This document shows positions 3,385-64,000 of a stretch of 64,000 bases of DNA, one piece after another. Origin of the DNA: Bacteroidota bacterium (GTDB lineage Bacteria > Bacteroidota > Bacteroidia > UBA7662 > JAYUJN01); assembly GCA_043765195.1 (NCBI GenBank), contig JAYUJN010000040.1, positions 22,734-86,733 of the forward strand. Direction: 5' to 3'. Numbering within the stretch: the stretch's first letter is position 1; every line of letters starts with the position of its first letter. The notes under the pieces were generated by a model, which did not search any database, had not been told where the DNA came from, and worked only from the letters and a program-made list of their open reading frames with translations. The position numbers were made by a program, and so were the translations under genes.

Positions 3385-3452
3385 ATTAATTGCATTGATT
3401 TGTGCCAAAAAAATGGTTACTTTGCAGTCGCTAATATTTATTTTTACCAAGA

Positions 3453-4172
3453 ATGTCGTTAAAAAATACCATTTTAAAAAAACACGCCCAGCACCGCTAC
3501 CCACAGTATTTGTTTGGTAAGGCGGCGCAAGACATCGCCACAACGCACAAAACGCAGTTTAAATTGAGGGAAATAAAGATTTTAGATGCTCCCTGCGGCA
3601 CGGGCGAAACCACCTACCACCTGGCGCAGGTGAATGGCAGCACCGTAACGGGCATAGATGCGTGGGAGCCTTACTTGGCGCAGGCAAATAGCGATTTTGG
3701 GGCTGCACCCAATGTTTATTTTTATAAACAAGATATTTTTGAACACCTAAAAACTTTTGTTGGTTTTTATGACGTGATAAACATCATAAATTCGTTATTT
3801 TTGTTTAAAGAAGCCGAAAAACTCTTAATGATTGCAAAGAAAAGCCTGACTGAAAACGGAAAATTGGTGGTAATAATACCAAATACAGAAAGCCAGAATT
3901 TTTTGGACTTTCAAAAAAACGATGCCAACAAAACCAATAAATCTGTTTATACCCGAGAGCAAATTGTGGTTTTGTTTGAGAAGTGTGGCTTTGAAATCGC
4001 TCATTTACAAGGACTTGCCTATACCTCGCACGTGGTGGGTACGCCTTTTCAGCAAAAACTATCGATAGCAAAAGATTATTTTTTGCTGGTGAAAGATGCG
4101 CTACAAAAAACCAAAGGCACTCGCCCACCGAGTTATTGGTTGTTTGTGCTTACCCAAAACAATAAAAAATAA
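3453..4172 (+). CDS. class I SAM-dependent methyltransferase
   Basis: Motif I ILDAPCGTGETT followed by an acidic residue after beta-2 (TGIDAWE). No specific substrate is inferable. Confidence 0.7.
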   Translation: MSLKNTILKKHAQHRYPQYLFGKAAQDIATTHKTQFKLREIKILDAPCGTGETTYHLAQVNGSTVTGIDAWEPYLAQANSDFGAAPNVYFYKQDIFEHLKTFVGFYDVINIINSLFLFKEAEKLLMIAKKSLTENGKLVVIIPNTESQNFLDFQKNDANKTNKSVYTREQIVVLFEKCGFEIAHLQGLAYTSHVVGTPFQQKLSIAKDYFLLVKDALQKTKGTRPPSYWLFVLTQNNKK

Positions 4173-4290
4173 GCCTTAAATAAATGTTTTAAAGAGCCGC
4201 TACCCAACTTTTTGTTTTTTCTTCTCGTTTGGTATCATAACGAGTGCATACATATTTGTACCGTTAGGTTTTAAGGTTAGGTTAATGAGA

Positions 4291-4316
4291 AGCCCCACGC
4301 AGTGGGGCTTTTATGT
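4291..4316 (+). terminator. rho-independent terminator
   Basis: GC-rich hairpin agccccac-gc-agtggggct followed by a T-run. Lies 3' of the methyltransferase gene, within the conserved element 4247-4316. Confidence 0.6.
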
Positions 4317-4493
4317 TTTGGGAGTTTTATACGTTTTTTTGTTTGGGAAATAAAAAATATTTTGCGCCATTGTGGGAAAATGGCGTTTTTGGGTTGGTCG
4401 TTTGCAGCGGGAGAGACGCGATTAATTGCGTCTGTACGTAATTCGTTCGGAAAATTGCGTAGTCTGTGCGTTATTTTGGTGGAAATATGATAT

Positions 4494-4762
4494 GAGACAA
4501 GGCAGTGCCTTGTCTCTACAAATAACAACGACAATGTAGAGACAAGGCACTGCCTTGTCTCCGCAACCGTGCCTTGCCTCTACAAATAACAAAAAAAATA
4601 AACGAAATATCGTACAGACCTTGCAATGCAACGTCTGTACGGAATTATGGTAAAATGCAATGGCTGGCGTGAGACGTTCTAATAGAACGTCTCTACAATT
4701 TTGAAATAATAACAAAAAAAATAAACAAAATATCGTACAGACGTTGCAATGCAACGTCTGTG
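4494..4762. repeat. cluster of five 23-25 bp perfect palindromes with shared flanks
   Basis: Palindromes at 4494-4516 and 4539-4561 (gagacaaggca-N-tgccttgtctc), 4614-4638 and 4737-4761 (acagacgttgca-a-tgcaacgtctgt; the first copy has one mismatch), and 4671-4693 (gagacgttcta-a-tagaacgtctc). Each is followed by tacaa(a)taacaa. A ~65-bp direct repeat is also present (4580-4639 vs 4692-4762). Confidence 0.8.
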
Positions 4763-24501: not shown

Positions 24502-25911
24502 ATGAAACATATTTTAACGATGGTTTTTGTGGTGTTTTGGGGCAATGGCGCATTTACGCAGAGCCTAAAAACGGATAGCAGTTATTTTTTGAGCCTCACG
24601 GAGCTGCACCAAATTATTTTGGTGGAGCACCCGATGGTGCAGCGGGCTAACCTTTTGCCGAAACAAGCCCAAAGCCTGATAATGATGGCAAAAGGGAGTT
24701 TTGACCCCGTAGTGGCGGGCGATTTTTCGCAAAAGACGTTTAAAAGCAAAACTTATTGGACTTTTTCTGATGCTTATTTTAAAATTCCGACCTGGATTGG
24801 CGCAGATATAAAGCTGAATTGGCAACAAAATAGCGGCGATTTTTTGGACCAAAGCGACCAAACGCCCCGCACGGGGCTGAACTACGCAGGCATTGCGCTA
24901 CCCATAGGCAGGGGGCTGCTCATAGACCAGCGCAGAGCCAGCCTGATGCAGGCGAAATCTTTTTTGGAGCAAAACCAAGCCGAGCAAGCCGCCATGGTAA
25001 ACAAAATTATGCTGCAAGCCAGCAAAGATTTTGCGGTTTGGTACACGGCGTACAAAAGTTTTTTGTTTATAAACGATGCCTATATTTTGGCAAACCAGCG
25101 TGCCGACCAAGTGAAACAAAGGGTGGTGCTGGGCGATGCCGCCGCCATAGACAGCGTGGAAGCCGTGGTGGCTGCCCAGCAGCGGCTGCTGGAGCGCACC
25201 GCAGCGCAGTTGGAGTTGTATTTGAACAATGTAAATATATCCAATTATTTGTGGAAAAACAACCAACCCATTCAGATTGAGCCGAGCGTTTACCCGATTT
25301 TTAACACCGAAAACACCAGTGCGCTGCTGCCCGATTCGTTGCTGAATGCCATTAAATTTGCGAGGGAAACGCACCCCAACCTGCAAAAAATTAGGTTTAA
25401 AGGCGAAATTTTAGAAACAGAACGCCGTTTAGCCCGAGAAATGCTAAAACCACAGCTCAACCTCGAGGCAGGAATTTTGCAGCAAAACCCCGTTTTTTCG
25501 CAAACGATTACCAGTAATTTTATACAAAACAACTACAAACTGGGCGCATCTGCCTACATTCCGATTTTTTTGCGCAAGGAGCGTGGCAAGCTCAACCTGA
25601 GTAATTTTAAAATAAAAGAGAACGATTTGGAGCTTTCGTTTGGCTACCAAACCATACAAAACGACCTAAGAATGGCGTTTGAGCAGATAAAAACACTGGA
25701 AGCGCAACTGCAACTTGCCCAGCGCATGATAACCAACTACGAAACGCTGCGCAACGGCGAAAAAATAAGGTTTGACAACGGCGAAAGCTCTGTTTTTTTG
25801 ATTAATGCCCGAGAAGCCAAGCTCTTAGAAGCAGAAGTAAAATACGCCGAACTGCAGGGAAAACTCCAAAAAGCCATCGCCGAGTGGCGGTTTGCACTTG
25901 GCGGTTTTTAA
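24502..25911 (+). CDS. TolC family outer-membrane efflux protein
   Basis: Signal peptide and two tandem TolC-type repeat halves with coiled-coil/alpha-barrel periodicity. Third gene of the ABC-HlyD-TolC operon. Confidence 0.7.
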   Translation: MKHILTMVFVVFWGNGAFTQSLKTDSSYFLSLTELHQIILVEHPMVQRANLLPKQAQSLIMMAKGSFDPVVAGDFSQKTFKSKTYWTFSDAYFKIPTWIGADIKLNWQQNSGDFLDQSDQTPRTGLNYAGIALPIGRGLLIDQRRASLMQAKSFLEQNQAEQAAMVNKIMLQASKDFAVWYTAYKSFLFINDAYILANQRADQVKQRVVLGDAAAIDSVEAVVAAQQRLLERTAAQLELYLNNVNISNYLWKNNQPIQIEPSVYPIFNTENTSALLPDSLLNAIKFARETHPNLQKIRFKGEILETERRLAREMLKPQLNLEAGILQQNPVFSQTITSNFIQNNYKLGASAYIPIFLRKERGKLNLSNFKIKENDLELSFGYQTIQNDLRMAFEQIKTLEAQLQLAQRMITNYETLRNGEKIRFDNGESSVFLINAREAKLLEAEVKYAELQGKLQKAIAEWRFALGGF

Positions 25912-25970
25912 TTGCACCAAAAGAATTTGGGCTTATAAAACTACGATAAATGAGTATTTTAAGCAGTTTT

Positions 25971-26070
25971 GAATTGTGTCTGCAGTGCGGACATAATTCG
26001 GAGGGTGAATGATAAAAACCAGTAGGATTTAAGTCAATTTTGAATTGTGCCCGCAGTGCGGACACAATTC
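25971..26070. repeat. pair of 29-bp imperfect palindromes (direct copies)
   Basis: gaattgtgtctgcagtgcggacataattc (25971-25999) and gaattgtgcccgcagtgcggacacaattc (26042-26070). Both are preceded by ttttgaattgtg. They lie in the 310-bp gap between tolC and the AT-rich island. Confidence 0.7.
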
Positions 26071-26221
26071 AGTTAGATGGACTGGTAGCCCAAACTACTA
26101 ACTTTTTTATTTTCAATAATTAAAAAATAAAACCTATAAAATTTGCAGATTGCAAAAAAATGGTTTAGATTTGTAGGGTAGTGTAAAATGTGCCTGTGTA
26201 CATGGATTAGCTATCATTATT

Positions 26222-27490
26222 ATGACCCACAAGCAGGAACTTTTCAAAAACTACCTAATCAAAAAAATTGGCTTCATTGAGGACACTTTTTTGAATAAGT
26301 ATATTCCGCTTCTTGAAGCGGCTAGCCCTAAACTTAAACTCTTAGGTAAACAGAAAAAAGTGTGGAGTGAAGATAGACAAAGATATTTGCCAGAAAAAGA
26401 AGACAGTCACAATACATACATTGAAAAAGAAAATTATTTCATACCTGAAAAATTCAATGTTATAGACCTCCTGAACATTGAACTTAACACTAAAAAAAGT
26501 AACGACTACACGTCAAAAGATTTAAATCTAAAATTTATTTCAGCGACTGACATATCAAACTTTACATACTGCCCAGTGAGTTTTGCAATCTCTAAAACTT
26601 TTGAATTGCCAAAACTCGAATCAGCAATTTTGGGAACATCACAACATGAAAAACAAATATTAATTAGGTGTTTGCGACCTTCTATAGCAAATGAATATAT
26701 TTCGTTCCATGATGCGATGATGACGGACTTCACTAGATTTGAAAATCCATTTTCACTCCATTCAGTTTTAAACGATGAAAATAAATTATTTTTTGACGAA
26801 CTAAGCGAATCATCAGTCATTTTCTATGGACACCACAATAACGAAACTAAAAACAAATATTTTAAAAGCACCAATGGAGGTTTTGTTGGGCAACCTGACT
26901 ATATTTTTAAAAACGATACCACAAACGATATTTTTGTGGTAGAAGAAAAATTCCAATTCGTGCCTAAAGACCCGTCAAATTTTTATTATAGCTCTTATTC
27001 TGAGGAGGAAGAAAAAAAAATTATAGAAAAAAGAACAAGGAAGTCTTTTTTCAACAATCATATTAATCAATTAAGCTCATATATTTACGGCATTGGAGAA
27101 TATGACATTAGGTATGGCTACCTGGTTTATTGGAAATATGAACTTGATAATAAAAATCCAAATATTGTCGGATGTGACGTTTTACGAATAGAAAAAACTG
27201 AAAACGGAAGGAAACAAATTAGAGATATATTTATCAGTCTTAAAAAATTGATAACAGATAAAAGTGGAGTTTTTGACATAGATAAACGAGTTCCAGCTAA
27301 GTGTGCAAATTGTGTTTCAAATCTTCTTTGCGGACATAAAACAGGAAGATTTACTGCTTTTAGCGTACCATATTCAAAGGACTACTTGAAAATATATTTT
27401 GCTCCATTTCCAGAGGGACTTAAAAAAGAAGTTCTGCCGACAGAATCAAACTCAACATCTGCACAAACACCAACTGACAGCCCACCATAA
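26222..27490 (+). CDS. Cas4/RecB-like PD-(D/E)xK nuclease with a predicted 4Fe-4S cluster (DUF83-type)
   Basis: Motif order matches Cas4/AddB nuclease domains: an N-proximal Cys (NFTYCPVSF), motif II D (GQPDYIF), motif III ExK (VVEEKF), a QhxxY motif (NQLSSYIYG) and C-terminal C-x2-C-x5-C (CANCVSNLLC). AT-rich codon usage unlike the flanking genes. Confidence 0.6.
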   Translation: MTHKQELFKNYLIKKIGFIEDTFLNKYIPLLEAASPKLKLLGKQKKVWSEDRQRYLPEKEDSHNTYIEKENYFIPEKFNVIDLLNIELNTKKSNDYTSKDLNLKFISATDISNFTYCPVSFAISKTFELPKLESAILGTSQHEKQILIRCLRPSIANEYISFHDAMMTDFTRFENPFSLHSVLNDENKLFFDELSESSVIFYGHHNNETKNKYFKSTNGGFVGQPDYIFKNDTTNDIFVVEEKFQFVPKDPSNFYYSSYSEEEEKKIIEKRTRKSFFNNHINQLSSYIYGIGEYDIRYGYLVYWKYELDNKNPNIVGCDVLRIEKTENGRKQIRDIFISLKKLITDKSGVFDIDKRVPAKCANCVSNLLCGHKTGRFTAFSVPYSKDYLKIYFAPFPEGLKKEVLPTESNSTSAQTPTDSPP

Positions 27491-27611
27491 CGGCATAAAA
27501 TAGACGGTTTTGCAACAGTGCTGCTAACGAAAGTCATTAAACATTAATACATCTATTCCCCTTCTTCGCAAATACCCAAAACATTGATGCCAACCTTAAA
27601 ACAACAACACG

Positions 27612-28619
27612 ATGGATAAAAAACGACCAATAGACAAAAAAAGAGAATCTGGTGGATACACTGATATTGGAACTCTTGAAGACGGCGCCATTGTAGAAAT
27701 GAAAGAAATAGCTGGAAGATTTTTGATTATCAAAGAACGTTCAATATATGAAATGATTTTTGCGGACAAAATAGACCCAGCAAGAACGAATATAAATTTA
27801 CCCAATACAATTCACAAACTCATTATAGATAAGGGGACAGAGTCTGAATTAGTTGCAAGGACTTTATTAACAGCAAAGACAGTTTTTAAAAAAGAATACT
27901 TAAACGATAGAATAAACTGCAATTCCGTTTTGAGTCTATGTGTTGATTTGCTGTCAGAACTTTCACTATTAGAAAAAGAAATAAAAGAATACTTAGACGA
28001 AGAAAATAAAGTATCGCTTGAATACGAAAAAAGAAGAAATGAAAAAGTTTCTTTCCAACTTCCTGCTATCATAAATTTGGAATCAAGGTGTAAAACTATT
28101 TATCAAAAAACTGACCACATTGAACAAACCCTAATGGAGATAATAACTTATTTTTATCCTAACAAACAATTGACAAAACAATCCCATTTCCCAAAGTTTC
28201 ACGAAGTATTAAAGGTAAAATATGGAGAAAATGACGGTTTTTCAAAGTTTATTGGTAAGAAAGCTTGTTTTATGAGAGTTATTAGAGAATTAAGAAATGG
28301 ACTTGACCATAGGCTTGCAACATACAAAGTTACAGATTTTGAATTAAAACCTGACGGCGATATTCTTTCACCTACAATTGAACTTAATCACAAAGACGTG
28401 AAAGTTGAACGAATATCACTTAGTGAATTTCTAAGAATTACATCCAGTAATTTAATTGAAATTATTGAAGTAACTTTTGCGTTTCTTGCAGGACGTGCTG
28501 TAAAAACGACAGGAATGCCTTACCAACTCAGGGAAATTCCAAAAGAAAAAAGACGACACAAATTTGTAAGATTTTGTTTTTGGATGCCAATTGGTGTTGA
28601 AGGATATTATTGTCAATAA
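27612..28619 (+). CDS. hypothetical protein with a HEPN-like Rx4H motif
   Basis: No family recognised. Contains RELRNGLDHR, which fits the HEPN Rx4-6H RNase motif, in a predicted helical context. AT-rich. Confidence 0.3.
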   Translation: MDKKRPIDKKRESGGYTDIGTLEDGAIVEMKEIAGRFLIIKERSIYEMIFADKIDPARTNINLPNTIHKLIIDKGTESELVARTLLTAKTVFKKEYLNDRINCNSVLSLCVDLLSELSLLEKEIKEYLDEENKVSLEYEKRRNEKVSFQLPAIINLESRCKTIYQKTDHIEQTLMEIITYFYPNKQLTKQSHFPKFHEVLKVKYGENDGFSKFIGKKACFMRVIRELRNGLDHRLATYKVTDFELKPDGDILSPTIELNHKDVKVERISLSEFLRITSSNLIEIIEVTFAFLAGRAVKTTGMPYQLREIPKEKRRHKFVRFCFWMPIGVEGYYCQ

Positions 28620-28796
28620 ATAAAGGCTACCACCAACATCAAACCATTGCAAACTATGCGTAATATTGAGTTTGGTGTTATTTTGGGCTTGTTATAAGGC
28701 GCTTTGAGCTGGGGCAAGTTTATGTATCACTCCAAAAACACGCACTATAATTGAAACGAAAAATCATAAATTTGCAACCATATTCAACCAAATAAA

Positions 28797-29669
28797 ATGA
28801 GCAAGAAATTAATACGATTTGATTGGGCTATAAAACGACTTTTAAGAAACAAAGCTAATTTCGTTGTTTTAGAAGGCTTTTTGAGCGAACTGTTGTTTGA
28901 TAACATTAAAATTGAGCAAATTTTAGAAAGTGAAAGCAACCAAGAAACAGACGATGACAAATTTAATCGTGTGGATATTTTAACTCAAAATTCAAAGAAT
29001 GAACTCATCATTATTGAAATTCAAAGCAGTTACGAAATTGATTATTTCCACAGAATGGCTTACGGTGTTTCAAAAAGTATTACTGAAAACCATAAATTAG
29101 GCAGTAAATACAAAGAAATCAAAAAAGTAATTTCTGTAAACATCGTTTACTTTGACCTCGGACAGGGACAAGACTACATTTACAGGGGAAAAACAAACTT
29201 TATTGGACTTCACCAAAAAGACTTGTTGGCATTATCTGATAAGCAAAAAAGTACGTTTATAAAAGAAAACGTATCTGATATTTTTCCAGAATTTTATTTG
29301 TTGAAAGTTAATCAATTCAACGACGTTGCAAAAGACACTTTGGACGAGTGGATTTACTTTTTGAAAAACAGCGAAGTAAAAGATGATTTTAAAGCCAAAG
29401 GACTCAAAGAAGCAGGCGAAGTATTGGATATTATGCGACTTGAAAAACAAGACGTATATGGCTACAATCGTTATATGGATAGTTTGAGTTTGAAAGCCAG
29501 TGAAATTTTTACTTTACAAACTGAGGCAGAGTTTAAAGCAATGGATGCGAGGAGTATTGAAATTGCTGAAAATGGAATTATTGAGGGTTTTGACAACTTG
29601 ACAATTGGTAAAATGACAAAATTGTCAATAGAAAAAATTGAAGAATTACGAATTAAACTAAACAAATAA
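28797..29669 (+). CDS. Rpn/YhgA-family PD-(D/E)xK recombination-promoting nuclease (putative transposase)
   Basis: N-terminal FDWAIKRLL...FLSELL matches the TIGR01784-type FDYAFKxLF start. It has a D...E-I-Q/K core (RVDILTQNSKNELIIIEIQ) and a C-terminal repeated KLSIEKIEEL-like helix. Confidence 0.7.
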   Translation: MSKKLIRFDWAIKRLLRNKANFVVLEGFLSELLFDNIKIEQILESESNQETDDDKFNRVDILTQNSKNELIIIEIQSSYEIDYFHRMAYGVSKSITENHKLGSKYKEIKKVISVNIVYFDLGQGQDYIYRGKTNFIGLHQKDLLALSDKQKSTFIKENVSDIFPEFYLLKVNQFNDVAKDTLDEWIYFLKNSEVKDDFKAKGLKEAGEVLDIMRLEKQDVYGYNRYMDSLSLKASEIFTLQTEAEFKAMDARSIEIAENGIIEGFDNLTIGKMTKLSIEKIEELRIKLNK

Positions 29670-29701
29670 ACCCCCACCCAAACAGAAACCCTACCCCCAA
29701 A

Positions 29702-32637: not shown

Positions 32638-33082
32638 ACAAATATACTTAAGGTTGGTTATTGCTATAAACGCCACAAAAACGAATAAAGTTGGGTGGTA
32701 AAATTAGGGGTAATGATTGGTACAGATTGTAGTTTTAAACACAAAACAGATACTTAACTCTTAAAACATGATTTTGATGGCTATTTCGCTGTATCTTTTT
32801 TTTAGAAAAACGAACCCTCACCCAAAAATCGCTTATTTTGCCCTCGTAACGGGCGACTTACGCCTGTGCAAATGTAGTCAAACTAAAATTATTTTTTGCA
32901 CAAGGTACAAAGAAAAATTCGGATACCGTTGTATTTATGACCATTCTTGTTTAATTTTGCCTTACAACAATCAGGGCAAACTACCTCTAAAATTTGTGGC
33001 ATACAGCCCAAAAATACGCATTCATTACCACTTTTCGCCGTCGCACACGCTACTCCACAACCAAATAACAAATTACAAAACA

Positions 33083-33664
33083 ATGAACAGAGAAAACATA
33101 CAAAATTACGTGCAGGCAACGATACAAATGCCAAGCGAAAAAGCAAAACTGCTGGCAGATAAATTTGAGTTTTTTGAACTTCAAAAAAATGAAATATTTA
33201 TAGCCGAAAATAAAATTTCTAAAAATACCTACATTTTAGAAAGCGGATTTATCCGCTCATTTACAATGGACAACGAAGGCAATGAGGTAACGACCAATAT
33301 TTATTCGCCTTTTTGTTTTATCAATGATGTAATGGCATTTTTCAAACAACAGCCCGCTACCGAGAGTTTTCAAGCCCTCACGCCCTGCAAACTTTGGGCG
33401 ATGAGCTATGAAGAAGTACAAGCAAATTTTCACGGGATACCTGAATTTAGGGAGTTTGGGCGAATGATGCTCATAACTAACTATGCCAACTTGAAAGACC
33501 GAATGTTGGGAATGATAAAAGATACTGCCGAAAATCGTTACTTGAAACTGATGAAAAATCACCCAGATATTTTCCAAAATGTTCCGCTGAAAATTATCGC
33601 TTCTTACCTTGGTATTACCGACACTTCTTTGAGCAGAATTAGAAAAGAAATTTTAAGCAAATAG
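33083..33664 (+). CDS. Crp/Fnr family transcriptional regulator
   Basis: N-terminal cNMP-binding beta-roll (FELQKNEIFIAENKISKNTYILESGFIRSF) and C-terminal HTH (LKIIASYLGITDTSLSRIRKEI). The start was reassigned to the internal Met at 33083; the upstream part of the ORF-track entry lacks coding character. Confidence 0.75.
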   Translation: MNRENIQNYVQATIQMPSEKAKLLADKFEFFELQKNEIFIAENKISKNTYILESGFIRSFTMDNEGNEVTTNIYSPFCFINDVMAFFKQQPATESFQALTPCKLWAMSYEEVQANFHGIPEFREFGRMMLITNYANLKDRMLGMIKDTAENRYLKLMKNHPDIFQNVPLKIIASYLGITDTSLSRIRKEILSK

Positions 33665-33776
33665 ATTCATCGTTCTTGCCAAATGGCAATTAAACTTTTC
33701 CAAAATACGAACTTGCCAAATGGCAACCCTGCACAATTTAATGTACCTTAACTTTGTACCATAAAATTTATACAAA

Positions 33777-36146
33777 ATGGTACACAAAACACTCGTTACT
33801 TCCCTTTTGCTTTTTGCATCAATTACTGCATTTAGCCAAAACATTACGCAAACCATCAGAGGCACTGTAATTGACAAAGAAAGCAAAGCTCCACTCGGTT
33901 TTTCATCTGTGGTTTTGCTCAATTCAAATCCAATTATTGGAGCTTTAACCGATACCTTGGGCAATTTTACTTTACCAAACATCGCCATTGGCAGGCAAAG
34001 TATTCAAGTAAGTTATCAGGGCTATAAAACGGCTGTGGTTTCAGATATTCAGCTGAGTGCAGGCAAAGAAATTGTGCTTCAAATTGAGTTGGAAGAAAAC
34101 GCCATAAGTTTAAATGCTGTAACAATAACCGCAGGAAACACCAAAGACAGAACCGTGAATGACATGATTGGCATTAGCGGTAGGACTTTTAGTGTGAGCG
34201 AAGCCAACCGTTTTGCGGGCAGCCAAAACGACCCTTCTCGCATGGCACGCAACTATGCGGGTGTGTCGGGCTCAAGCGACCAACGAAACGACATAATTAT
34301 TAGGGGCAACTCGCCACAAGGTTTGCTTTGGCGGATTGAGGGCATTCCTGTTCCTAACCCCAATCACTTTGCGGGGCAAGGCAGTACAGGCGGTCCAATC
34401 AGCATCATTAATTACAAATTACTCTCCAATTCTGATTTTATTACGGGTGCTTTCCCCGCAGAATATGGCAATGCCACATCGGGCGTTTTTGACATAAAAA
34501 TGAGAAACGGCAACAACAAACGCTCGGAACGCACCCTTCAACTCGGAGCTTTGGGCATAGAGGCTATTGTGGAAGGACCTTTTAGCAAAAAAAGCAATTC
34601 CAGCTATTTGGTCGCCTATCGCTACTCTACACTTTCTTTGCTGACTTCACTTAATCTAAAAATCGGCTTTGCGTCCATTCCTTCTTACCAAGATTTATCG
34701 TTCAAATTTAATTTTGTAACCCAAAAAGCAGGCACGTTCAAACTATTTGGATTGGGCGGCGTGAGCAGCACCGATTTTTTGGATAGCAAACGTGATACTA
34801 CGCAATTTTCGCCAGCCAACAAGGGAGAAAATCTGCGTTTTGGCTCCAAAACAGGTATTTTGGGTTTGAGCCACACCTATTTTTTAGACAATACCACCTT
34901 TATAAAAACTACTATTGCCACCACTTACGAAGGCAACGCAAGCAAAAGAGATAGCATTTTAGCCGATGGAAACACCAAATCAACAGGCGGTTTTGGTTAT
35001 GATAACTACAAATTTGTGCTAAGTTCTTACCTCAACAAAAAAATTAACGCCAAGCATACCATTCAAACAGGAATAATACTTGAAAATATCCATTACCAAA
35101 CAAAAGACAGTTTGCTGTTATACAAACCTGTTTCAGGCGAGCAGTTTTGGGGTTATAACAACGATTTTGGTGGCACTACAAACTTAATTCAGGCTTATGG
35201 TCAGTGGAAATACAGCATAAATGAACAAATCACGCTCAACTCGGGCTTGCATTTTCAGTACCTGACGCTTAACAATAAGTTTGCCGTAGAGCCACGGGTT
35301 GCCCTCAATTATCAGGTAGCAGAAAACCAAAGATTGAGCATTGGCTACGGATTGCACAATCAGGTGCAGCCTTACGCCATGTATTTTTACAAAGATAGAT
35401 TTAGTAGCCAAACCGAAACCAATAAAAATTTGGGTTTTACTCGTAGCAATCAAATTATTGCGGGGTATGATGTGAATTTAAAAAACGATTTTAGGATAAA
35501 AACCGAAGTCTATTATCAATATTTATCCAACGTACCAGTTGAAAAAGACTCGTCGTCTTATTCAGTAATGAACTACGGAGCAACGTTCAACAATACCTAC
35601 AAACCCAATTTGGTAAACAATGGCGTTGGGCAAAATTATGGTATAGAACTGACTTTGGAGAAATTTTTTAGTAACAACTATTACTTTTTACTCACCACTT
35701 CTCTATTCAACTCCAAATACAAAGGGAGCGACGGCATAGAGCGAAACACCGCATTCAACGGTAATTATGTGGTAAACGCTTTGGGCGGATATGAGCTAAA
35801 ATTGAAAAAGAACCTCGCTATTTTGTTTGATGCAAAAATGACTTTTGCGGGTGGATTGCGTTACACACCAATAGATATAAATGCCTCTATCCAAAACCAA
35901 GAGGCAAATTATAAAGATAATGCAGCATTTTCGCTACAAAATGCACCTTATTTTAAACCCGATGCAAAAATCACCGTCCGAAAAGACTTCAAAAATAAAG
36001 TGGCTTTGGAGTTTGCGTTGGACATACAAAATGTAGTGGGTTATCAAAATGTTTTTGTAAAACTATACGACAAAAATACAAAAACAGAACGCACCGCTTA
36101 CCAAAACGGGAGATTTCCAACGGTACAATTAAAATTAGAATTTTAA
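33777..36146 (+). CDS. TonB-dependent receptor with an N-terminal carboxypeptidase-regulatory-like domain
   Basis: Signal peptide and a CarbopepD_reg-like beta-sandwich (IRGTVIDKESKAPLGFSSVVLL). Has a plug domain with a TonB box region and a 22-strand barrel, with a C-terminal aromatic residue (LKLEF). Confidence 0.85.
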   Translation: MVHKTLVTSLLLFASITAFSQNITQTIRGTVIDKESKAPLGFSSVVLLNSNPIIGALTDTLGNFTLPNIAIGRQSIQVSYQGYKTAVVSDIQLSAGKEIVLQIELEENAISLNAVTITAGNTKDRTVNDMIGISGRTFSVSEANRFAGSQNDPSRMARNYAGVSGSSDQRNDIIIRGNSPQGLLWRIEGIPVPNPNHFAGQGSTGGPISIINYKLLSNSDFITGAFPAEYGNATSGVFDIKMRNGNNKRSERTLQLGALGIEAIVEGPFSKKSNSSYLVAYRYSTLSLLTSLNLKIGFASIPSYQDLSFKFNFVTQKAGTFKLFGLGGVSSTDFLDSKRDTTQFSPANKGENLRFGSKTGILGLSHTYFLDNTTFIKTTIATTYEGNASKRDSILADGNTKSTGGFGYDNYKFVLSSYLNKKINAKHTIQTGIILENIHYQTKDSLLLYKPVSGEQFWGYNNDFGGTTNLIQAYGQWKYSINEQITLNSGLHFQYLTLNNKFAVEPRVALNYQVAENQRLSIGYGLHNQVQPYAMYFYKDRFSSQTETNKNLGFTRSNQIIAGYDVNLKNDFRIKTEVYYQYLSNVPVEKDSSSYSVMNYGATFNNTYKPNLVNNGVGQNYGIELTLEKFFSNNYYFLLTTSLFNSKYKGSDGIERNTAFNGNYVVNALGGYELKLKKNLAILFDAKMTFAGGLRYTPIDINASIQNQEANYKDNAAFSLQNAPYFKPDAKITVRKDFKNKVALEFALDIQNVVGYQNVFVKLYDKNTKTERTAYQNGRFPTVQLKLEF

Positions 36147-40995: not shown

Positions 40996-41028
40996 GCCGC
41001 TGCCCCTTCGGGGCAGCGGCTTTTTTTT
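40996..41028 (+). terminator. rho-independent terminator
   Basis: Perfect 11-bp GC-rich stem gccgctgcccc-ttcg-ggggcagcggc followed by T8. Confidence 0.7.
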
Positions 41029-41183
41029 GTTTGAGCGGTTTTATTGTCTTTTTATTTGAGCGGTTTTGTTATCTTTTTTATTTGAGGGGCTTTTATTGTC
41101 TTTTTGTTTGATGGGTTTTGTTGTCTTTTTGTTTGAGAGGTTTTATTCTCTTTTTGTTTGATGGGTTTTGTTTTATTCCCCTT
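41029..41183. repeat. tandem repeat, ~26-bp unit x6
   Basis: Six consecutive units of tttgagNggttttRttgtctttttR lying between the terminator and the ytxJ promoter region. Confidence 0.75.
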
Positions 41184-56325: not shown

Positions 56326-59300
56326 TTATTTAGAAATAATTAAACGCTGTATTTTCTCACTCTCGCCTTGTACTACTTTTAGGGTATAGTTGCCAGATTG
56401 GAACTGACGTACATCTATTTGGGTACGTACTTCCACACCTCGTTCCAAGTCCATCTCAGAAGCATACACTACTTTGCCCCTGGCATCGTACATTACTATG
56501 CTCGCCTCACCTGCATCTCCTTTTAGTACTACATTAAACACTGTGTTGCTCGGGTTCGGATACACTTTCAAAGTAAGCTCTTTGGTTATGTCCGCCAAAA
56601 CTACTTTTATCCAATTGCCTCTCAACACCTCGCTCTTGCCATCAAAGTCAAACTGTACTACTCGGTAGTAGCTCTCGCCTGTGTATGGTTCGTAGTCTAT
56701 CACACCGTATTTCTGGCGTATGTTCGTTGTGCCGAAGCCTTTTTTGGTAGCTATCAACTCTGGTGTTTCGCCGATGTTGCGTACTCGCTCCACCTCAAAC
56801 CTGTCGTTGTTTATCTCGCTGGCTGTACTCCAATCTACATACACGTGCCTATCTACAGCCCTCACGCTCAAATCTATCAGCGTTACTGGCGTAGGTGTGG
56901 CGTTGAACAAACCTACATCTATCGTAGTGTTGTTTTCGCCGCTACCCAATACGATTGGGTTTATGCGACCCGTTGCTGGGTTGGCATCACTGTCTTTGGT
57001 TGGGTCTGTGCCTATTTGTTGTGGGCTGTAATCAAAACCTGATGGCTTGCCAAACTCTACAATATAGGGTTTGCCTGGCATCAATCCGCTGAACACATAA
57101 TTGCCGTTGGCATCTGTGGTCGTGGTGGCTATCGTCGCTCCATTGCCGTCAAGCAATTTCACTACAATACCCGATACACCTGGTTCTCCTGGGTCTTGCA
57201 CGCCGTCTTTGTCCGTGTCGTTAAACACCTTGTCGCCTAAGCTCGCAGGTATGTAAATACCCATGTCCACCGTCAAGTTGCTTGCACCTGAACCCAGGGT
57301 ATATGTACCCGTTTTGCCAGTAGCCACGTCGGCATCGCTGTCTTTGGTGTCATCGCTGCCAGCATCTTTTGTGGTTATCACGCTGCCTGCTGGCTTGGTG
57401 AATATTACATAGTAGCTGCCTGGGGTTAAGTTGTCAAACAAATAATTACCATTGACATCTGTAACCTTCGTGCTTATTACCCCATTCGTAGTGGCATCGT
57501 ATAGCGTAGCTGTTACACCAGCAATACCTTGCTCACCCACATCTTGCACGCCATTGGCGTTCTTATCCATAAATACTTTATCACCTAATTTAGCAGGTAT
57601 ATATATACCCATATCTACGGTCAAATTGTTTTCGCCCGCTGCAAGGGTATATGTACCCGTTTTTCCAGTAGTTACGTCGGCATCGCTGTCTTTGGTATCA
57701 TCGCCACCAGCATCTTTGGTCGTTATTATGCTACCCGCTGGCTTGGTAAATATTACATAGTAGCTTCCTGGGGTAAGGTTGTCAAACAAATAGTTGCCAT
57801 TGGCATCTGTAACCTTGGTGCTTACTACCGCATTTGTGGTGGCATCGTATAGCGTGGCTGTTACACCTGCTACACCTGGCTCACCCGCATCTTGCACGCC
57901 GTTGGCATTGCTGTCGGTAAATACTTTATCACCTAATTTAGCAAGTTTCACAAAACCTGCATCTATGTCCGTGCGTACCTGACCTTGACCCAATACGATT
58001 GGCTGTGTGCGACCGTTCGTGCCAGCATCGCTGTCTTTCGTGCCATCGCCACCTGCGCCACCTATTGTGCCTATATAGCCCGTTGGTGTGGTAAAGCCTA
58101 CGGTGTATGTACCTGCTGGCAAGCCATTAAATACATATTCTCCGTTTGGTCCTGTAACAACACTCGCTATCGGGTTGCCGCTTGCATCGAACAACGTTAC
58201 CGTTACACCTGCAATGCCTGGCTCTCCTGGGTCTTGTACACCATCGCCGTCTCTGTCTTCCCATACAAAATTACCAATAGAACCTGGTACATAAATACCT
58301 GCATCTACCGTCGGATTGTATTGTCCACCTACCAAGGTGTAAGCAACTGTTTTACCAGTAACTGGGTCTGCATCACTGTCTGTACCATCAGCACCTATGT
58401 CTTTTTTGGTAAATATCGCATTTGCAGGCAAAGTGCTAAATCCTACGCTGTACGTGCCAGGCTGCAAGTTCACAAATGTGTATGCGCCGTTTTGGTCGGT
58501 TATCGTAGTAGATATTGGCGTACCTGCGCTGTTAAACAACGTTACTGTTACACCTGGTACACCCACTTCTGTGGCTTCTTGTATGCCATTGGCATTCACA
58601 TCGTTCCATACAAAGTTACCCAAACCAGCAAGCGGTGTATTGCTTTTCACACCTGCATCAAGGTCTCTGTTGTTCTGACCAGCAGCCAGCGTTACAGTTG
58701 GCGTTCTGCCAGTTGTAGCATCTGCATCGCTGTCTTTGGTATCGTCTGTGCCAGCATCTTTTGTGGTAAATACAAATCCTTGCGGCAAGTTGTTAAATCC
58801 TACACTGTACGTGCCAGGCGTTAAGTTGGGGAACAAATAGAACCCGTTTACGTCCGTAACCGTACTACCTACTGCGTTGCCAGCTCCGTCATACAACGTT
58901 ACTGATACGCCCTCTACACCAGGTTCGTTTGCATCTTGTACGCCATCGCCATTCAAATCATTGAATACAAAGTCGCCAAGGCTCGCCAACGCCGCATTCG
59001 GTTTGTTGATGCCCGCATCTAAGGTTTGGTTGTACTCACCCGTTACCAAGGTAACTTGTTGGGTTTCGCCAGTTGTAGTGCTTGCATCGCTGTCTTTGGT
59101 GTCGTCTGTTCCACTGTTTGATGGGCTAAATGAATAGCCAGTTGGTAAATTGCGGAATTTTACGCTGTACGTGCCAGGGGCTAATCCATTAAATATGTAT
59201 TCACCCAATGCGTCTGTTATCGTTGTGGCTATTACATTGCCCGATACGTCTAACAAATCTACTACCACGCCTTGTACACCTACTTCACCTGCATCTTGTA

Positions 59301-62300
59301 CACCGTTTGTGTTGGTATCGTACCATACAAAATTGCCCAAGCTCGCATTATTTGGCGGAGGAGTAAGGTAAATACCCGCATCTACTGTTGGGTTAAACTG
59401 ACCGCTTGTAAGCGTATAGTTGCCAGTTCTGCCTGTTTGTACGTCTGCATCGCTATCTTTGGTGTCATTTCCACCCAAATCTTTGCCCGTAAATGTATAA
59501 CCAATCGGCAATGTGAAGCCTACGCTGTACGTGCCTGGTACTAAATTATTGAACGAGTAAAAGCCTGTGGCATCGGTAATTGTGGTCGCCACTGGGCTTC
59601 CGTTTACGTCAAACAAGGTTACGGTTACACCCGATACACCTGTTTCGCCAGCGTCTTGTACGCCGTCTTTGTTGCTATCTATCCACACATAATTACCTAA
59701 ACCTGCATTCGGAGTTGAGTACAAACCTGCATCTATTGTGGTGTTGTTTTCACCAGATGCCAAAGTTACTGGGGCAGAGCGTCCACTTGATGTGTTGGCG
59801 TTGCTGTCTTTGGTTGGGTCTGTGCCTTGGCTCGCAGGGCTAAATGTAAGTCCGTTCGGACGGATAAATTCTACTGTGTAAGTGCCAGGAGCTAAGTTTG
59901 TAAAACTATATGCACCCAAAGCGTCGGTGGTCGTTGTGCCTACGGTGTTGCCACCAGCATCAAGTAAATTCACCGTTACGCCTACGATACCTGCCTCGCC
60001 TGCATCTTGTATGCCGTTTTGGTTGGCATCTGCAAATACAAAGTTACCAAGTGCGGCTGGTTGGAAAAATCCAAAGTCCACTGTTAGGTTTGAGTTGGCA
60101 TCTGGTACGCCCGCTGGGTTGTTGCTTGGGTTTTCGCCCGTTGGCTCGCCGCCTACTGTAAGGGCTACCGTGCCGCTGCGGGTTTCACCTGCTACGGTTG
60201 TTACGCCATTGTCGTTGTTATCGCCGTTGGTATTTGGGTTCGCCTCCTGACCTGCGCCTGTGCTGCTGTTGAAGCCCAATGGGTTTACAACGCCTACAAT
60301 GTAGCTGCCAGGTTTTAGGTTGTTGAACAAATAATTGCCGTTGGCATCTGTGGTGGTGGTATTGATAGCCGCTCCGTCAGGTTGTCCATCGTTGTTGGCA
60401 TCGGCATATAATTTTACCGTTGCGCCTGCTATTGGTGCTTCGCCTGCATCTTTCAAACCGTTATTGTTGGCATCTAACCACACTTGGTTACCCAAGTTCA
60501 ATGGCTGATAAAAACCTGCATCTACGTCTGTTTTTGCATCGCCACTGTTTAAAGTTACAGCATTGCTACGTCCAGTTGTGGTGTTGGCATCACTGTCTTT
60601 GGTTGGGTCTGTGCCTGTACCTTGTGGTGATGAGGTAAAGTTCGCTGGTTTCACAAATTCTACGATGTAACTACCTGGTGCCAAGTTTGCAAACAAATAG
60701 TTGCCGTTGGCATCGGTTGTGGTTGTAACTGGCTGACCGTTTGCACCCAATACTGGGTTGCCTGCTGCATCAAGTAATTTTACAATTACACCTGCTATGC
60801 CTGGCTCTGTTGGGTCTTGTACGCCGTCTTGGTTGTCATCACGGAATACTTTATCGCCCAAACTCGCTGGAACGTAAAATCCGAAGTCCACTGTTAGGTT
60901 GCTGCTGTTGTCGGCAGTACCTGCTGGGTTGTTGCTTGGGTTTTCGCCAGTTGGCTCTGTTCCTGCTGCAAGACTTACTACACCGCTGCGGGTTTCACCT
61001 GCTGTGGTTGTTACACCGTTGTCGTTGTTGTCGCCGTTGGTATTCGGATTTGCCTCCTGACCTGCACCTGTGCTACTCACATAAGTACCGCCTGGGGTTA
61101 CACCTACCACATAATCACCTGCTCTTAAGCCTGTGAATATATACAAACCGTTTGCATCGGTGGTAGTTGTAGCCAAAACCGTAGTGCCTGCTGCATTATA
61201 CAACTTAACCGTTGCGCCTGCTATCGGCAATTCACTGGCATCTTTTATGCCGTTGTTGTTGGTATCTATCCATACTTGGTTACCCAAGTTGAGTGGTTTT
61301 GTAAATCCAGCATCAATCGTGTTGTCCGTTTGTCCGCTACCCAATGTGATGGGTTGAGTACGTCCAGTTGTAACGCTTGCGTTGCTGTCCTTGGTTGGGT
61401 CTGTGCCTGCATTCGGGTTTGATGGGTCGAAGCCACTTGGTTTCACAAACTCTACAATGTATGTGCCTGGTACTACATCAAAGAAGTAATTACCATTTGC
61501 ATCGGTTACAGTGGTAACTGGCTGACCAGTTGGTCCCAATACTGGGTTGCCTGCACCATCAAGTAATTTTACAATTACGCCTGCTATGCCTGACTCGCCT
61601 GCATCTTGTATGCCATCGCCGTTTAAATCATCAAATACTTTGTCGCCTATGCGGGCTGGTTTATAGAAACCAAAATCCACTGTTAGGTTGCTGCTGTTGT
61701 CGGCTATGGTTGAACCATTATTGCTCGGGTTTTCACCAGTTGGCTCTGTTCCCGCTGCAAGGCTTACTACACCGCTACGGGTTTCGCCTGCTGTGGTTGT
61801 TACACCGTTGTCGTTGTTGTCGCCATTGGTATTCGGGTTCGCCTCCTGACCTGCACCTGTGCTACTCACAAAAGTGCTGCCTGGGGTTACGCCCACTACA
61901 TAATCACCTGGTTTTAGGTTGTCAAACAAGTATAAACCATTGGCATCAGTGGTGGTGGTAGCCAAAACCGTAGTGCCTGCGGCATTGTACAACTTAACCG
62001 TTGCACCTGCTATGATTGGCTCGCCAGCGTCTTTTACGCCGTTGTTGTTCGTATCTTCCCACACTTGGTTACCCAAGTTTACTGGTTTGTAAAAACCTGC
62101 ATCAAGCGTTTGATTGCTCTGACCTGATGTAAGTGTTACGGTTTGTGTTTTACCAGTTGTTACGTCTGCATCGCTGTCTAATTCATCATCGTTACCAGCA
62201 TTGGCAATGGTTGGCGTATAGCCAGCAGGGTTTGCAAACCCAACTGAATAAGTACCTGGTGCCAAGTTTGTAAATTGGTAGAAACCAAGTGCATCGGTGG

Positions 62301-64000
62301 TTGTAGTACCTATGCTCGCACCTGCTGCATCAAAAAGGGTTACGGTTACGCCCGCAAGTCCATTTTCGCCTACTTCTTGTACGCCGTTGGCATTTTTATC
62401 TTCCCATACGTAATTGCCCAAGGTAGCAGGGGCATAAAACCCGAAGTCCACCGTTAAGTTGCTATTGTTGTCGGCTGTGCCTGCTGGGTTGTTGCTTGGG
62501 TTTTCGCCCGTTGGCTCTGTACCTACTGCAAGGGTTACTACACCGCTGCGGGTTTCGCCTGCTGCTGTGGTTACACCGTTGTCGTTGTTGTCGCCGTTGG
62601 TATTTGGATTCGCCTCCTGACCTGCACCTGTGCTACTTACAAAAGTACCACCTGGCGTTACGCCTACTACATAATCGCCTGCGGTTAAGCCTGTAAATAT
62701 GTACAAACCGTTGGCATCGGTAGTCGTAGTAGCCAAAACCGTAGTGCCTGCTGCATTGTACAATTTAACGGTTGCACCTGCTATGATTGGCTCGCCAGCA
62801 TCTTTCACACCGTTGTTGTTGGTGTCTATCCATACTTGGTTACCCAAGTTCATTAGTGGTGTTATGGCAATGTCGGAAATATCGGAGTCATCTTGGTCGC
62901 CGTTTCCACCGTTTATTTCATCGTCGGTTACAGTACCGTCGTTGTTTGGGTCGGTGTCGGGCGTAGAATCTACGTCGTTGCCGCTGTCGTTAGAAATTTC
63001 GGCTGTGTTGCGCAAAGATGTACCTGCGTTTGCATTTACAGTCAAAACGATGTTTACGCTCTGAGACGCACCTGCGGCTATGCTTGCAATGGTTGTAGTG
63101 GCGTTGCTGCCACTTGCTGTCCATGCTGCGTTGTCGGCTGGTACAAATGTAAATCCTGCTGGAATGTAGTCCGTTACTTGGGTATTGGTTGCTACTACGT
63201 TTCCTTGGTTAAATACCTCTACTTTAAAGGTTACTTTGCTACCAATTACGATTGGCGTAGGTGCAGAAGCAACGGTTTTGCGTAGTGCAAGGTCAAAGCG
63301 TATGCTGTTGAAACCAAAGTCGTAGGTATGGTTGTTTTCGCCATAACCGCCTGTGGTAAGTGCTTTTATTACGTTTGAGCCGCTGGTTGTGCCATCGTTG
63401 TCTATGGCATCGTTTGAGCCTTGGTCGGCTGGGCTAAGGGTTAAGCCAGCAAGTGCCGTGGCGTTTGCGCCTGCGGTTGGTATGCGTATTTCGTAGTTTG
63501 TGTTTGGTGCCAGACCCGTAAAAATGTAATTACCGTTGGCATCAGTGATTTTTGTAGCCACTAAGTTGCCATTTTGGTATAGTTGCACGGTTACGCCTGC
63601 TCTGCCTGTTTCGCCAGCATCTTGTATGCCGTCGCCGTCGGTATCGTTCCATACACGGTTACCTATTTCTATCGGAGCCAAGCCACACATTACTTCTATG
63701 TCGCCCACACCGTTTGCCTTACTAAACGTAGAAGCATCAAAAGATTCATATAACTCATACTGAGTACCTATTTGTCCGTTTGTATTAGACATGTGGGCTA
63801 TACCACCCGTTCTTATCCTACCACCTGGGTCCATGATTGTGGTTAGCACTTCACCAGAACCTGGTAACGTGGCTATACCACCTTGGGCAGATTCTTGGTG
63901 CGCAGGAAATGGGTCTTCTTGGTAGTAAAATTCACCACCGCCTATGCCTTGTCCGTTGTTTGCGCCTGATGTAGTAGTTGTAATGCCGTTGCTTGTGATA
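56326..64000 (-). CDS. giant T9SS-secreted repetitive adhesin built from SdrD B-like/Cna-B-type calcium-binding repeats (5' end beyond the window)
   Basis: More than 2500 aa. The reading frame stays open to the window edge and the ORF-track start is a GTG. Contains at least 20 ~110-aa repeats, each with a DxNxDGxxDxxE-like motif and a TDANGxYxF core (e.g. LGNQVWIDTNNNGVKDAGEPIIAGATVKLY...TTTDANGLYIF). C-terminal T9SS sorting domain (LKVYPNPSNTVFNVVL...GNYTLKVV). Confidence 0.8.
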   Translation of the reverse strand, partial: ITSNGITTTTSGANNGQGIGGGEFYYQEDPFPAHQESAQGGIATLPGSGEVLTTIMDPGGRIRTGGIAHMSNTNGQIGTQYELYESFDASTFSKANGVGDIEVMCGLAPIEIGNRVWNDTDGDGIQDAGETGRAGVTVQLYQNGNLVATKITDANGNYIFTGLAPNTNYEIRIPTAGANATALAGLTLSPADQGSNDAIDNDGTTSGSNVIKALTTGGYGENNHTYDFGFNSIRFDLALRKTVASAPTPIVIGSKVTFKVEVFNQGNVVATNTQVTDYIPAGFTFVPADNAAWTASGSNATTTIASIAAGASQSVNIVLTVNANAGTSLRNTAEISNDSGNDVDSTPDTDPNNDGTVTDDEINGGNGDQDDSDISDIAITPLMNLGNQVWIDTNNNGVKDAGEPIIAGATVKLYNAAGTTVLATTTTDANGLYIFTGLTAGDYVVGVTPGGTFVSSTGAGQEANPNTNGDNNDNGVTTAAGETRSGVVTLAVGTEPTGENPSNNPAGTADNNSNLTVDFGFYAPATLGNYVWEDKNANGVQEVGENGLAGVTVTLFDAAGASIGTTTTDALGFYQFTNLAPGTYSVGFANPAGYTPTIANAGNDDELDSDADVTTGKTQTVTLTSGQSNQTLDAGFYKPVNLGNQVWEDTNNNGVKDAGEPIIAGATVKLYNAAGTTVLATTTTDANGLYLFDNLKPGDYVVGVTPGSTFVSSTGAGQEANPNTNGDNNDNGVTTTAGETRSGVVSLAAGTEPTGENPSNNGSTIADNSSNLTVDFGFYKPARIGDKVFDDLNGDGIQDAGESGIAGVIVKLLDGAGNPVLGPTGQPVTTVTDANGNYFFDVVPGTYIVEFVKPSGFDPSNPNAGTDPTKDSNASVTTGRTQPITLGSGQTDNTIDAGFTKPLNLGNQVWIDTNNNGIKDASELPIAGATVKLYNAAGTTVLATTTTDANGLYIFTGLRAGDYVVGVTPGGTYVSSTGAGQEANPNTNGDNNDNGVTTTAGETRSGVVSLAAGTEPTGENPSNNPAGTADNSSNLTVDFGFYVPASLGDKVFRDDNQDGVQDPTEPGIAGVIVKLLDAAGNPVLGANGQPVTTTTDANGNYLFANLAPGSYIVEFVKPANFTSSPQGTGTDPTKDSDANTTTGRSNAVTLNSGDAKTDVDAGFYQPLNLGNQVWLDANNNGLKDAGEAPIAGATVKLYADANNDGQPDGAAINTTTTDANGNYLFNNLKPGSYIVGVVNPLGFNSSTGAGQEANPNTNGDNNDNGVTTVAGETRSGTVALTVGGEPTGENPSNNPAGVPDANSNLTVDFGFFQPAALGNFVFADANQNGIQDAGEAGIVGVTVNLLDAGGNTVGTTTTDALGAYSFTNLAPGTYTVEFIRPNGLTFSPASQGTDPTKDSNANTSSGRSAPVTLASGENNTTIDAGLYSTPNAGLGNYVWIDSNKDGVQDAGETGVSGVTVTLFDVNGSPVATTITDATGFYSFNNLVPGTYSVGFTLPIGYTFTGKDLGGNDTKDSDADVQTGRTGNYTLTSGQFNPTVDAGIYLTPPPNNASLGNFVWYDTNTNGVQDAGEVGVQGVVVDLLDVSGNVIATTITDALGEYIFNGLAPGTYSVKFRNLPTGYSFSPSNSGTDDTKDSDASTTTGETQQVTLVTGEYNQTLDAGINKPNAALASLGDFVFNDLNGDGVQDANEPGVEGVSVTLYDGAGNAVGSTVTDVNGFYLFPNLTPGTYSVGFNNLPQGFVFTTKDAGTDDTKDSDADATTGRTPTVTLAAGQNNRDLDAGVKSNTPLAGLGNFVWNDVNANGIQEATEVGVPGVTVTLFNSAGTPISTTITDQNGAYTFVNLQPGTYSVGFSTLPANAIFTKKDIGADGTDSDADPVTGKTVAYTLVGGQYNPTVDAGIYVPGSIGNFVWEDRDGDGVQDPGEPGIAGVTVTLFDASGNPIASVVTGPNGEYVFNGLPAGTYTVGFTTPTGYIGTIGGAGGDGTKDSDAGTNGRTQPIVLGQGQVRTDIDAGFVKLAKLGDKVFTDSNANGVQDAGEPGVAGVTATLYDATTNAVVSTKVTDANGNYLFDNLTPGSYYVIFTKPAGSIITTKDAGGDDTKDSDADVTTGKTGTYTLAAGENNLTVDMGIYIPAKLGDKVFMDKNANGVQDVGEQGIAGVTATLYDATTNGVISTKVTDVNGNYLFDNLTPGSYYVIFTKPAGSVITTKDAGSDDTKDSDADVATGKTGTYTLGSGASNLTVDMGIYIPASLGDKVFNDTDKDGVQDPGEPGVSGIVVKLLDGNGATIATTTTDANGNYVFSGLMPGKPYIVEFGKPSGFDYSPQQIGTDPTKDSDANPATGRINPIVLGSGENNTTIDVGLFNATPTPVTLIDLSVRAVDRHVYVDWSTASEINNDRFEVERVRNIGETPELIATKKGFGTTNIRQKYGVIDYEPYTGESYYRVVQFDFDGKSEVLRGNWIKVVLADITKELTLKVYPNPSNTVFNVVLKGDAGEASIVMYDARGKVVYASEMDLERGVEVRTQIDVRQFQSGNYTLKVVQGESEKIQRLIISK

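Follow-up and report, generated by a model that had tools for sequence, protein, structure and literature searches.

Three adjacent nuclease-type genes in an AT-rich patch of a bacterial chromosome raise the question of whether they act together as one defence system or only happen to lie side by side. Such a patch is found in contig JAYUJN010000040.1 of a Bacteroidota bacterium, of which a stretch of 64,000 nt was analysed (hereafter the window; all coordinates count from its first letter). The islet encodes a Cas4-like protein (gene 1), a protein of an unannotated family with a HEPN-type domain (gene 2) and an Rpn-family protein (gene 3), and a preliminary description of the locus took the trio for a candidate defence or mobile module. 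Our results suggest that the islet is probably a small, horizontally acquired hotspot of three independent stand-alone nuclease-type genes, not one multi-gene system. The locus calls for caution in general: adjacent nuclease genes in an AT-rich patch resemble a "system", and the comparative context points to three unrelated solitary genes.

Homologues of gene 2 were collected by scanning one genome per species (185,579 genomes) with two peptide patterns and tblastn. The 33 genome loci (41-70% identity) and 3 metagenome contigs gave 36 loci, with flanks reaching up to 10 kb or the contig end. For gene 1, 51 loci were compared (47 metagenome loci and 4 further contigs; 28-74% identity). No relative of gene 1 or gene 3 lies within 10 kb of a gene 2 homologue, or on its contig where this is shorter (0/36 loci), and the neighbourhoods of gene 1 homologues are likewise free of relatives of gene 2 and gene 3 (0/51). 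The closest relative of gene 2 (L037, 79% identical) has no trace of gene 1 in the 604 bp upstream of it. A 75%-identical copy (L038, L039) has a type III restriction enzyme on one side and a putAbiC gene on the other, and a 71%-identical gene 1 (L040-L042) is followed by unrelated small open reading frames (ORFs). Clustering the ORFs within 5-6 kb of gene 1 or gene 2 homologues gave no recurrent neighbour of 70-90 aa or more, and within 700 bp there was no broadly shared small ORF, such as an antitoxin. At the nucleotide level, the similarity between the window and the homologue loci covers each ORF and at most 20-40 bp beyond it. The three genes are never found together elsewhere, and thus we regard them as three separate single-gene cassettes. 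Each family would spread one ORF at a time, carrying hardly any flanking DNA, and land at variable places in Bacteroidota genomes.

One possible alternative is a lineage-specific three-component defence or abortive-infection (Abi) system, in which the Cas4-like DNase and the HEPN RNase would work together and the Rpn protein would serve as a third effector. Several observations favour such a system and weigh against three independent genes. All three genes are on one strand, separated by short gaps of 121 bp (gene 1 to gene 2) and 177 bp (gene 2 to gene 3), and their guanine-cytosine content (GC) is a uniform 31-32%, as if they had been acquired together. Three contigs of the window's own species (L034-L036) are the only ones in which the trio was found, and all of them have it intact. 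The gene 2 scan samples the family and is not exhaustive. Transcription signals point the same way. The consensus of the Bacteroidota-type -7 promoter motif, known from Bacteroides promoters, is TAnnTTTG. The 121-bp gap upstream of gene 2 has no such motif and no terminator-like site lies between the three genes, so that gene 2 may be co-transcribed with gene 1 in this genome. Many homologues, moreover, are located among ordinary genes, and a defence context is occasional and not the rule.

However, functional systems normally retain their partners across horizontal transfer, and the loci compared above, including the closest relatives of genes 1 and 2, contain no such partners. Besides the Cas4 domain, the trio gives no PADLOC system match. 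The co-occurrence test largely refutes a three-component system, which we consider very unlikely even as one restricted to this lineage. The idea that each gene might carry its own promoter, raised in the preliminary description from the gap lengths, would fit genes 1 and 3, each preceded by a motif match; gene 2 has no such match upstream. A separate scan for sigma-70 promoters and terminators returned no more sites than shuffled sequences did.

The foreign appearance of the islet, in turn, is borne out by its composition. Its GC is 32.0% compared with 44.4% for the window, and it is the lowest-GC 3.4-kb segment of the window: only 0.08% of the windows of equal length are as low, and all of these are the islet itself. 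The GC at third codon positions (GC3) is 0.275 for gene 1, 0.215 for gene 2 and 0.300 for gene 3, compared with 0.39-0.62 for all other genes of the window. The low GC agrees with the preliminary description. The islet is bordered by an export operon (ABC_membrane, HlyD-like and OEP/TolC genes) upstream and by a convergent DUF4230 gene on the opposite strand downstream. The window contains no tRNA and no CRISPR-like array, and none of the 42 other ORFs called in it matches a Cas model. Within the islet there is no integrase or transposase, and no convincing direct or inverted repeats flank it to mark an element. No tandem repeats were found near the three genes and, in a search for an RNA partner, no Rfam matches in 25-31 kb. 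The host's nearest relative, with a 60% identical TolC-type gene, has other genes downstream of that gene and lacks the islet at that position.

Some further features were observed at the upstream border. Between the TolC-type gene and gene 1, a 47-nt repeat is present twice (25953-26070), the copies being 71 bp apart. Each copy contains a near-perfect 14-15-bp palindrome (GAATTGTGYCYGCA / TGCGGACAYAATTC). The repeat occurs nowhere else in the window, nor in any fetched locus of other species. A strain contig (L097), 97.6% identical, stops within this intergenic region upstream of gene 1, and its end falls between the two repeat copies. The repeats might act as tandem terminator hairpins or as a protein-binding site, or mark the scar of an insertion. 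Taken as its longest ORF, from 24445, the TolC-type gene shares 38 bp with the gene upstream of it, and the gene calls of public assemblies place the start at 24502 (469 aa).

Genes of the solo-Cas4-like, Rpn and stand-alone HEPN toxin kinds are all known. What appears to be new at this locus, judging from sequence, are the unannotated HEPN family to which gene 2 belongs and, for gene 1, a Cas4 subfamily whose members share a conserved N-terminal domain. Gene 2 is the useful product of this analysis: its family is well conserved and unannotated, shows a clean HEPN signature, lacks a partner gene and occurs in Bacteroidota chromosomes as well as in phage genomes. In agreement with the preliminary description, which recognised no family for it, the window protein has no match in Pfam, NCBIfam or PADLOC. 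A word-indexed search collected 186 proteins, all of ~335 aa and mostly from Bacteroidota, and an exhaustive profile search gave 758 cluster representatives (50% identity), nearly all of them end-to-end matches. Across 47 members, down to 23% identity, residues R11, D52, D55, G75, R228, H233 and P254 are invariant.

The Rx4H motif noticed in the preliminary description is formed by R228 and H233, which are present in 47/47 sequences and also in phage-borne relatives. The position after the arginine (229) is occupied by N (33 sequences), D (6), H (6) or T (1), and position 232 is acidic in 45 of the 47 (E in 36, D in 9). According to a survey of HEPN proteins, the Rx4-6H motif is located where helix 3 ends, and its arginine is mostly followed by N, D or H; helix 2 carries a conserved acidic residue, and the stretch between helices 2 and 3 can contain inserts (PMC3710099). 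Since both the predicted motif position and the residue after the arginine fit this definition, we take the motif of gene 2 as a HEPN signature.

The AlphaFold model of gene 2 (predicted local distance difference test score, pLDDT, 88.6; predicted template modelling score, pTM, 0.85) contains a beta-rich, conserved N-terminal domain with the invariant residues R11, D52, D55 and G75. It is followed by a long helical hairpin at residues 103-181, made of helices 103-143 and 156-181, the second of which bears the conserved Q165-K-x-D168-H169. After a short helix (193-204), helix 209-233, the predicted helix 3, ends in the Rx4H motif and is followed by a beta insert and helix 270-295. A Foldseek search of the model against the Protein Data Bank (PDB) returned nothing significant, and a PDB sequence search with the gene 1 and gene 2 family profiles gave nothing meaningful. 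Four HEPN families are among the 25 weak profile matches of the 47 members: Ribonuc_2-5A (2 members, E 0.02), HEPN_Cthe2314 (0.0018), DUF4145 (0.065) and HEPN_Apea (0.19).

Gene 2 resembles the single-protein HEPN Abi and toxin proteins (AbiD/AbiF Abi_2, AbiJ, AbiU2 and AbiV; PMC3710099) in several respects. It has an invariant Rx4H with N, D or H after the arginine, its motif ends what is predicted as helix 3 of a helical bundle, with the acidic D168 in the predicted helix 2, and it is solitary, sometimes beside restriction-modification or Abi genes, and also encoded by phages. Unlike them, it has no significant match to existing HEPN models of Pfam or PADLOC, and it carries its own N-terminal beta-rich domain, the very long hairpin 103-181 and a beta insert after the motif. 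Gene 2 also differs from the HEPN-MNT type II/VII toxin-antitoxin pairs (SO_3166/SO_3165, PDB 5yep): it is 2.5x larger and has no adjacent nucleotidyltransferase antitoxin. No nucleotidyltransferase is among the most frequent neighbour families of gene 2 homologues, and no neighbour of any size is conserved. These features suggest that gene 2 most likely encodes a metal-independent HEPN RNase that would act alone, as the single-gene Abi and toxin HEPN proteins do. The putative RNase would probably be a dimer, and the N-terminal beta-rich domain may be its regulatory or sensing part.

Gene 1 has the complete Cas4-type motif set that was ascribed to it. Among 25 homologues, residues C117, D226, E241-E242-K243, Q283, Y287, C361, C364 and C370 are invariant. 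These comprise the RecB-like PD-(D/E)xK motifs, the QxxxY motif and the four cysteines of the C...CxxCx5C pattern, which are predicted to hold an iron-sulphur (Fe-S) cluster. The protein matches the PADLOC Cas4 model (E 3e-8) and scores 13.6 bits against Pfam PF01930 (Cas_Cas4), below the gathering cut-off of 22.7. The Cas4 match begins at about residue 104, and the N-terminal extension of ~100 aa seen in the preliminary description is thus real. In a confident model, the extension folds into two helices followed by a small beta sheet and a further helix, and nearly all of the 25 homologues in the alignment retain it, two of them in shortened form. It matches no family in Pfam, PADLOC or NCBIfam. 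Neither cas1/cas2 nor a CRISPR array accompanies the gene in the window, and no neighbour is conserved at the 51 gene 1 loci. Together, these data support a predicted stand-alone Cas4-like Fe-S nuclease with an additional N-terminal domain, which may process DNA ends or foreign DNA independently of CRISPR.

Known relatives are the solo-Cas4 and pfam12705 Cas4-like nucleases outside CRISPR loci (PMC5704561) and ACE1, an Argonaute-associated Cas4-family enzyme (PMC12094033). Gene 1 differs from these by its conserved ~100-aa N-terminal domain, by its sub-threshold Cas_Cas4 score and by having no helicase, Argonaute or other conserved partner. Its family is mainly confined to Bacteroidota and relatives, and it provides a bacterial example of the solo-Cas4 class, which is still unexplained.

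Gene 3 is an Rpn-type nuclease gene by family, as had been proposed. It matches PF12784 (PDDEXK_2) with an E value of 5.6e-23 (82.3 bits, cut-off 27.4) and passes the NCBIfam Rpn family model TIGR01784 (59.2 bits, cut-off 52.1), and in this it resembles the E. coli RpnL/RpnS genes (PMC5350276, PMC10400941). Residues D9, D60, E74 and Q76, read from the translation without an alignment, are comparable by position to D11, D63, E82 and Q84, the catalytic residues of RpnA (PMC5350276). E. coli rpn genes encode a toxic DNA endonuclease and, by translation from inside the gene itself, a small protein that neutralises the nuclease; they give E. coli protection from some phages, are clustered with defence genes and show single-gene mobility without inverted repeats or target-site duplications (PMC10400941). 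Gene 3 is likewise a single gene without such repeats or duplications in a foreign-looking islet. Unlike the E. coli genes, it matches PDDEXK_2 and not Transposase_31 (PF04754), and its host belongs to the Bacteroidota. By homology, gene 3 may encode a toxic DNA endonuclease with an intragenic antitoxin. In-frame Met codons are present in its C-terminal part, and no internal TAnnTTTG motif was found in the gene.

In populations, each of the three genes is best read as behaving like a typical conflict gene. Gene 2 homologues have 28-39% GC whatever their host and are below the distant flanks in 19/23 loci; gene 1 homologues are below them in 14/14. Gene 2 proteins from different orders are 64-65% identical, which implies recent transfer. 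A complete Gabija system and a type IIG restriction-modification enzyme occur in the flanks of gene 2 homologues, as do integrases, AbiEii-like ATPases and Schlafen-type proteins. In Flavobacterium sp. J372 a homologue stands alone among haem-synthesis genes, and in F. arsenatis one lies 8 kb from a Shedu-type nuclease gene. Gene 1 homologues adjoin an integrase, UvrD and a DEAD/MZB helicase in one context, belong in another to an element that also carries an integrase, mer genes, IS21 and ParDE, and elsewhere adjoin Mob_Pre and RadC genes or stand alone. The defence flavour that the preliminary description saw in the islet would be plausible, by inference, for each gene separately, and it fails for a joint cassette, whose members do not co-occur.

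Defence context was counted only for very strong neighbour matches (Gabija, type IIG and type III restriction-modification). Weak PADLOC neighbour matches were rejected as evidence for being unspecific; in the window, TatD scored as QatD, and ATPases scored as mad3, AriA or LmuB.

Neither gene 1 nor gene 2 has a match among sequenced phages and plasmids (INPHARED, PLSDB) at E 1e-5, and gene 1 has no relative in IMG/VR. Three distant relatives of gene 2 (27-33% identity) are present in IMG/VR contigs and keep all invariant residues. They reside in true phage genomes, where they either follow a ParB-methyltransferase gene directly, with the terminase, portal and capsid genes behind them, or adjoin a methyltransferase-Mrr fusion.

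Three side observations concern the neighbourhoods of gene 2 homologues. In two of the phage contigs (L092 154-1170 and L093 2762-3778), the start of the gene 2-like ORF precedes the stop of a ParB-N6/N4 DNA methyltransferase gene by 4 bp, and the ORF lies just upstream of the terminase. This arrangement suggests that, in the phage branch of the family, translation of the ORF is coupled to that of the methyltransferase. At three loci from Aquimarina, Aequorivita and a Flavobacteriia metagenome-assembled genome, a shared protein of 433-435 aa without a Pfam match is encoded ~20-35 bp after gene 2 (L015 11038-12342, L017 11026-12324, L018 ~3430-4700) and may be a subclade-specific partner. A 64% identical homologue with 32% GC (L006; CAZGYC010000019.1, 10001-11005) comes from a contig assigned by binning to Limnohabitans (Betaproteobacteria), with a GC of 52% in the distant flanks; this reflects either a binning error or transfer across phyla.

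The same contexts allow for a different beneficiary. The genes could be leftover or hitch-hiking cargo that serves mobile elements or phages by countering defence, by recombination or the processing of DNA ends, by addiction, or by keeping out a second infecting phage. The gene 1 homologues in the integrase/mer/IS21/ParDE element and beside Mob_Pre and RadC, the phage-borne gene 2 relatives next to methyltransferases and terminase, and the habitually low GC of both families are consistent with this idea, and mobile elements often take up Cas4-like genes, possibly to counter defence (PMC5704561). However, the islet itself has no integrase, transposase, tRNA or terminal repeats, the phage and plasmid searches gave no close match, and many homologues are single insertions among housekeeping genes. 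We regard mobile cargo as unlikely, with a small yet appreciable probability. It overlaps with the reading of three independent genes, as the genes are solitary and mobile in both and the beneficiary alone differs.

Still less can be said for ordinary housekeeping enzymes of DNA repair or RNA processing that are AT-rich by chance. Solo-Cas4 genes have been reported to be inherited mostly vertically, like regular genes (PMC5704561), and some homologues do lie among housekeeping genes. However, the distribution of gene 2 is patchy (33/185,579 species genomes in the scan limited to two peptide patterns), synteny is not conserved, and GC and GC3 deviate strongly. The absence of the islet from the corresponding position in the host's nearest relative and the cross-order identity of the gene 2 proteins also argue against it, and we consider housekeeping functions extremely improbable.

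Within the reading of three independent genes, it is tempting to speculate further on gene 2. It might found a sizeable new family of single-protein HEPN RNases, in which the N-terminal domain would sense infection and release the RNase. Such a gene would spread by single-gene transfer through Bacteroidota, be carried by phages beside DNA methyltransferases as well, and serve in abortive infection or superinfection exclusion. This remains a tentative proposal, which we hold to be possible and not probable. If gene 2 were a true self-contained RNase gene for defence or exclusion, its family would be an addition to defence catalogues, which are thin for Bacteroidota.

Table 1 Position of the islet, its genes and the predicted functional elements within the window
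Feature	Position	Strand	Remark
AT-rich islet	25950..29700	.	~32% GC; between OEP/TolC gene (stop 25911) and DUF4230 gene (stop 29702, - strand)
TAGATTTG, Bacteroidota-type -7 promoter motif (TAnnTTTG)	26166..26173	+	56 bp upstream of gene 1; motif match only
Gene 1, solitary Cas4-family PD-(D/E)xK nuclease	26222..27490	+	422 aa; predicted 4-Cys Fe-S cluster
Gene 1 N-terminal domain, residues 1-103	26222..26530	+	outside Cas4 match
Gene 1 Cas4-like nuclease core, residues 104-372	26531..27337	+	includes Cys117 and C361-x2-C364-x5-C370
Gene 2, solitary protein of an unannotated family, HEPN-type domain	27612..28619	+	335 aa
Gene 2 HEPN Rx4H catalytic motif (predicted), R228-N-G-L-D-H233	28293..28310	+	end of predicted helix 209-233
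TAAATTTG, Bacteroidota-type -7 promoter motif	28767..28774	+	30 bp upstream of gene 3; motif match only
Gene 3, Rpn-family (PDDEXK_2) recombination-promoting nuclease	28797..29669	+	290 aa

Several other features were observed outside the islet. A tandem array of 5.8 copies of the 25-nt unit TTTTTGTTTGAGGGGTTTTATTGTC (84% matches) lies at 41024-41169, between an ORF ending at 40749 and an ORF starting at 41313; it has no spacers and was rejected as a CRISPR. An ORF of 2502 aa on the - strand (56326-63834), with a GC3 of 0.43 that is below its neighbours, contains two tandem copies of a 348-nt unit (57245-57943; 85% identical); in the giant protein, this amounts to an internally duplicated domain. 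A cNMP-binding regulator and a CarboxypepD_reg/Plug receptor at 32768-36146 have a GC of 36.5% and 40% and a GC3 of 0.39-0.41, lower than their neighbours, and this deviation is milder than that of the islet.

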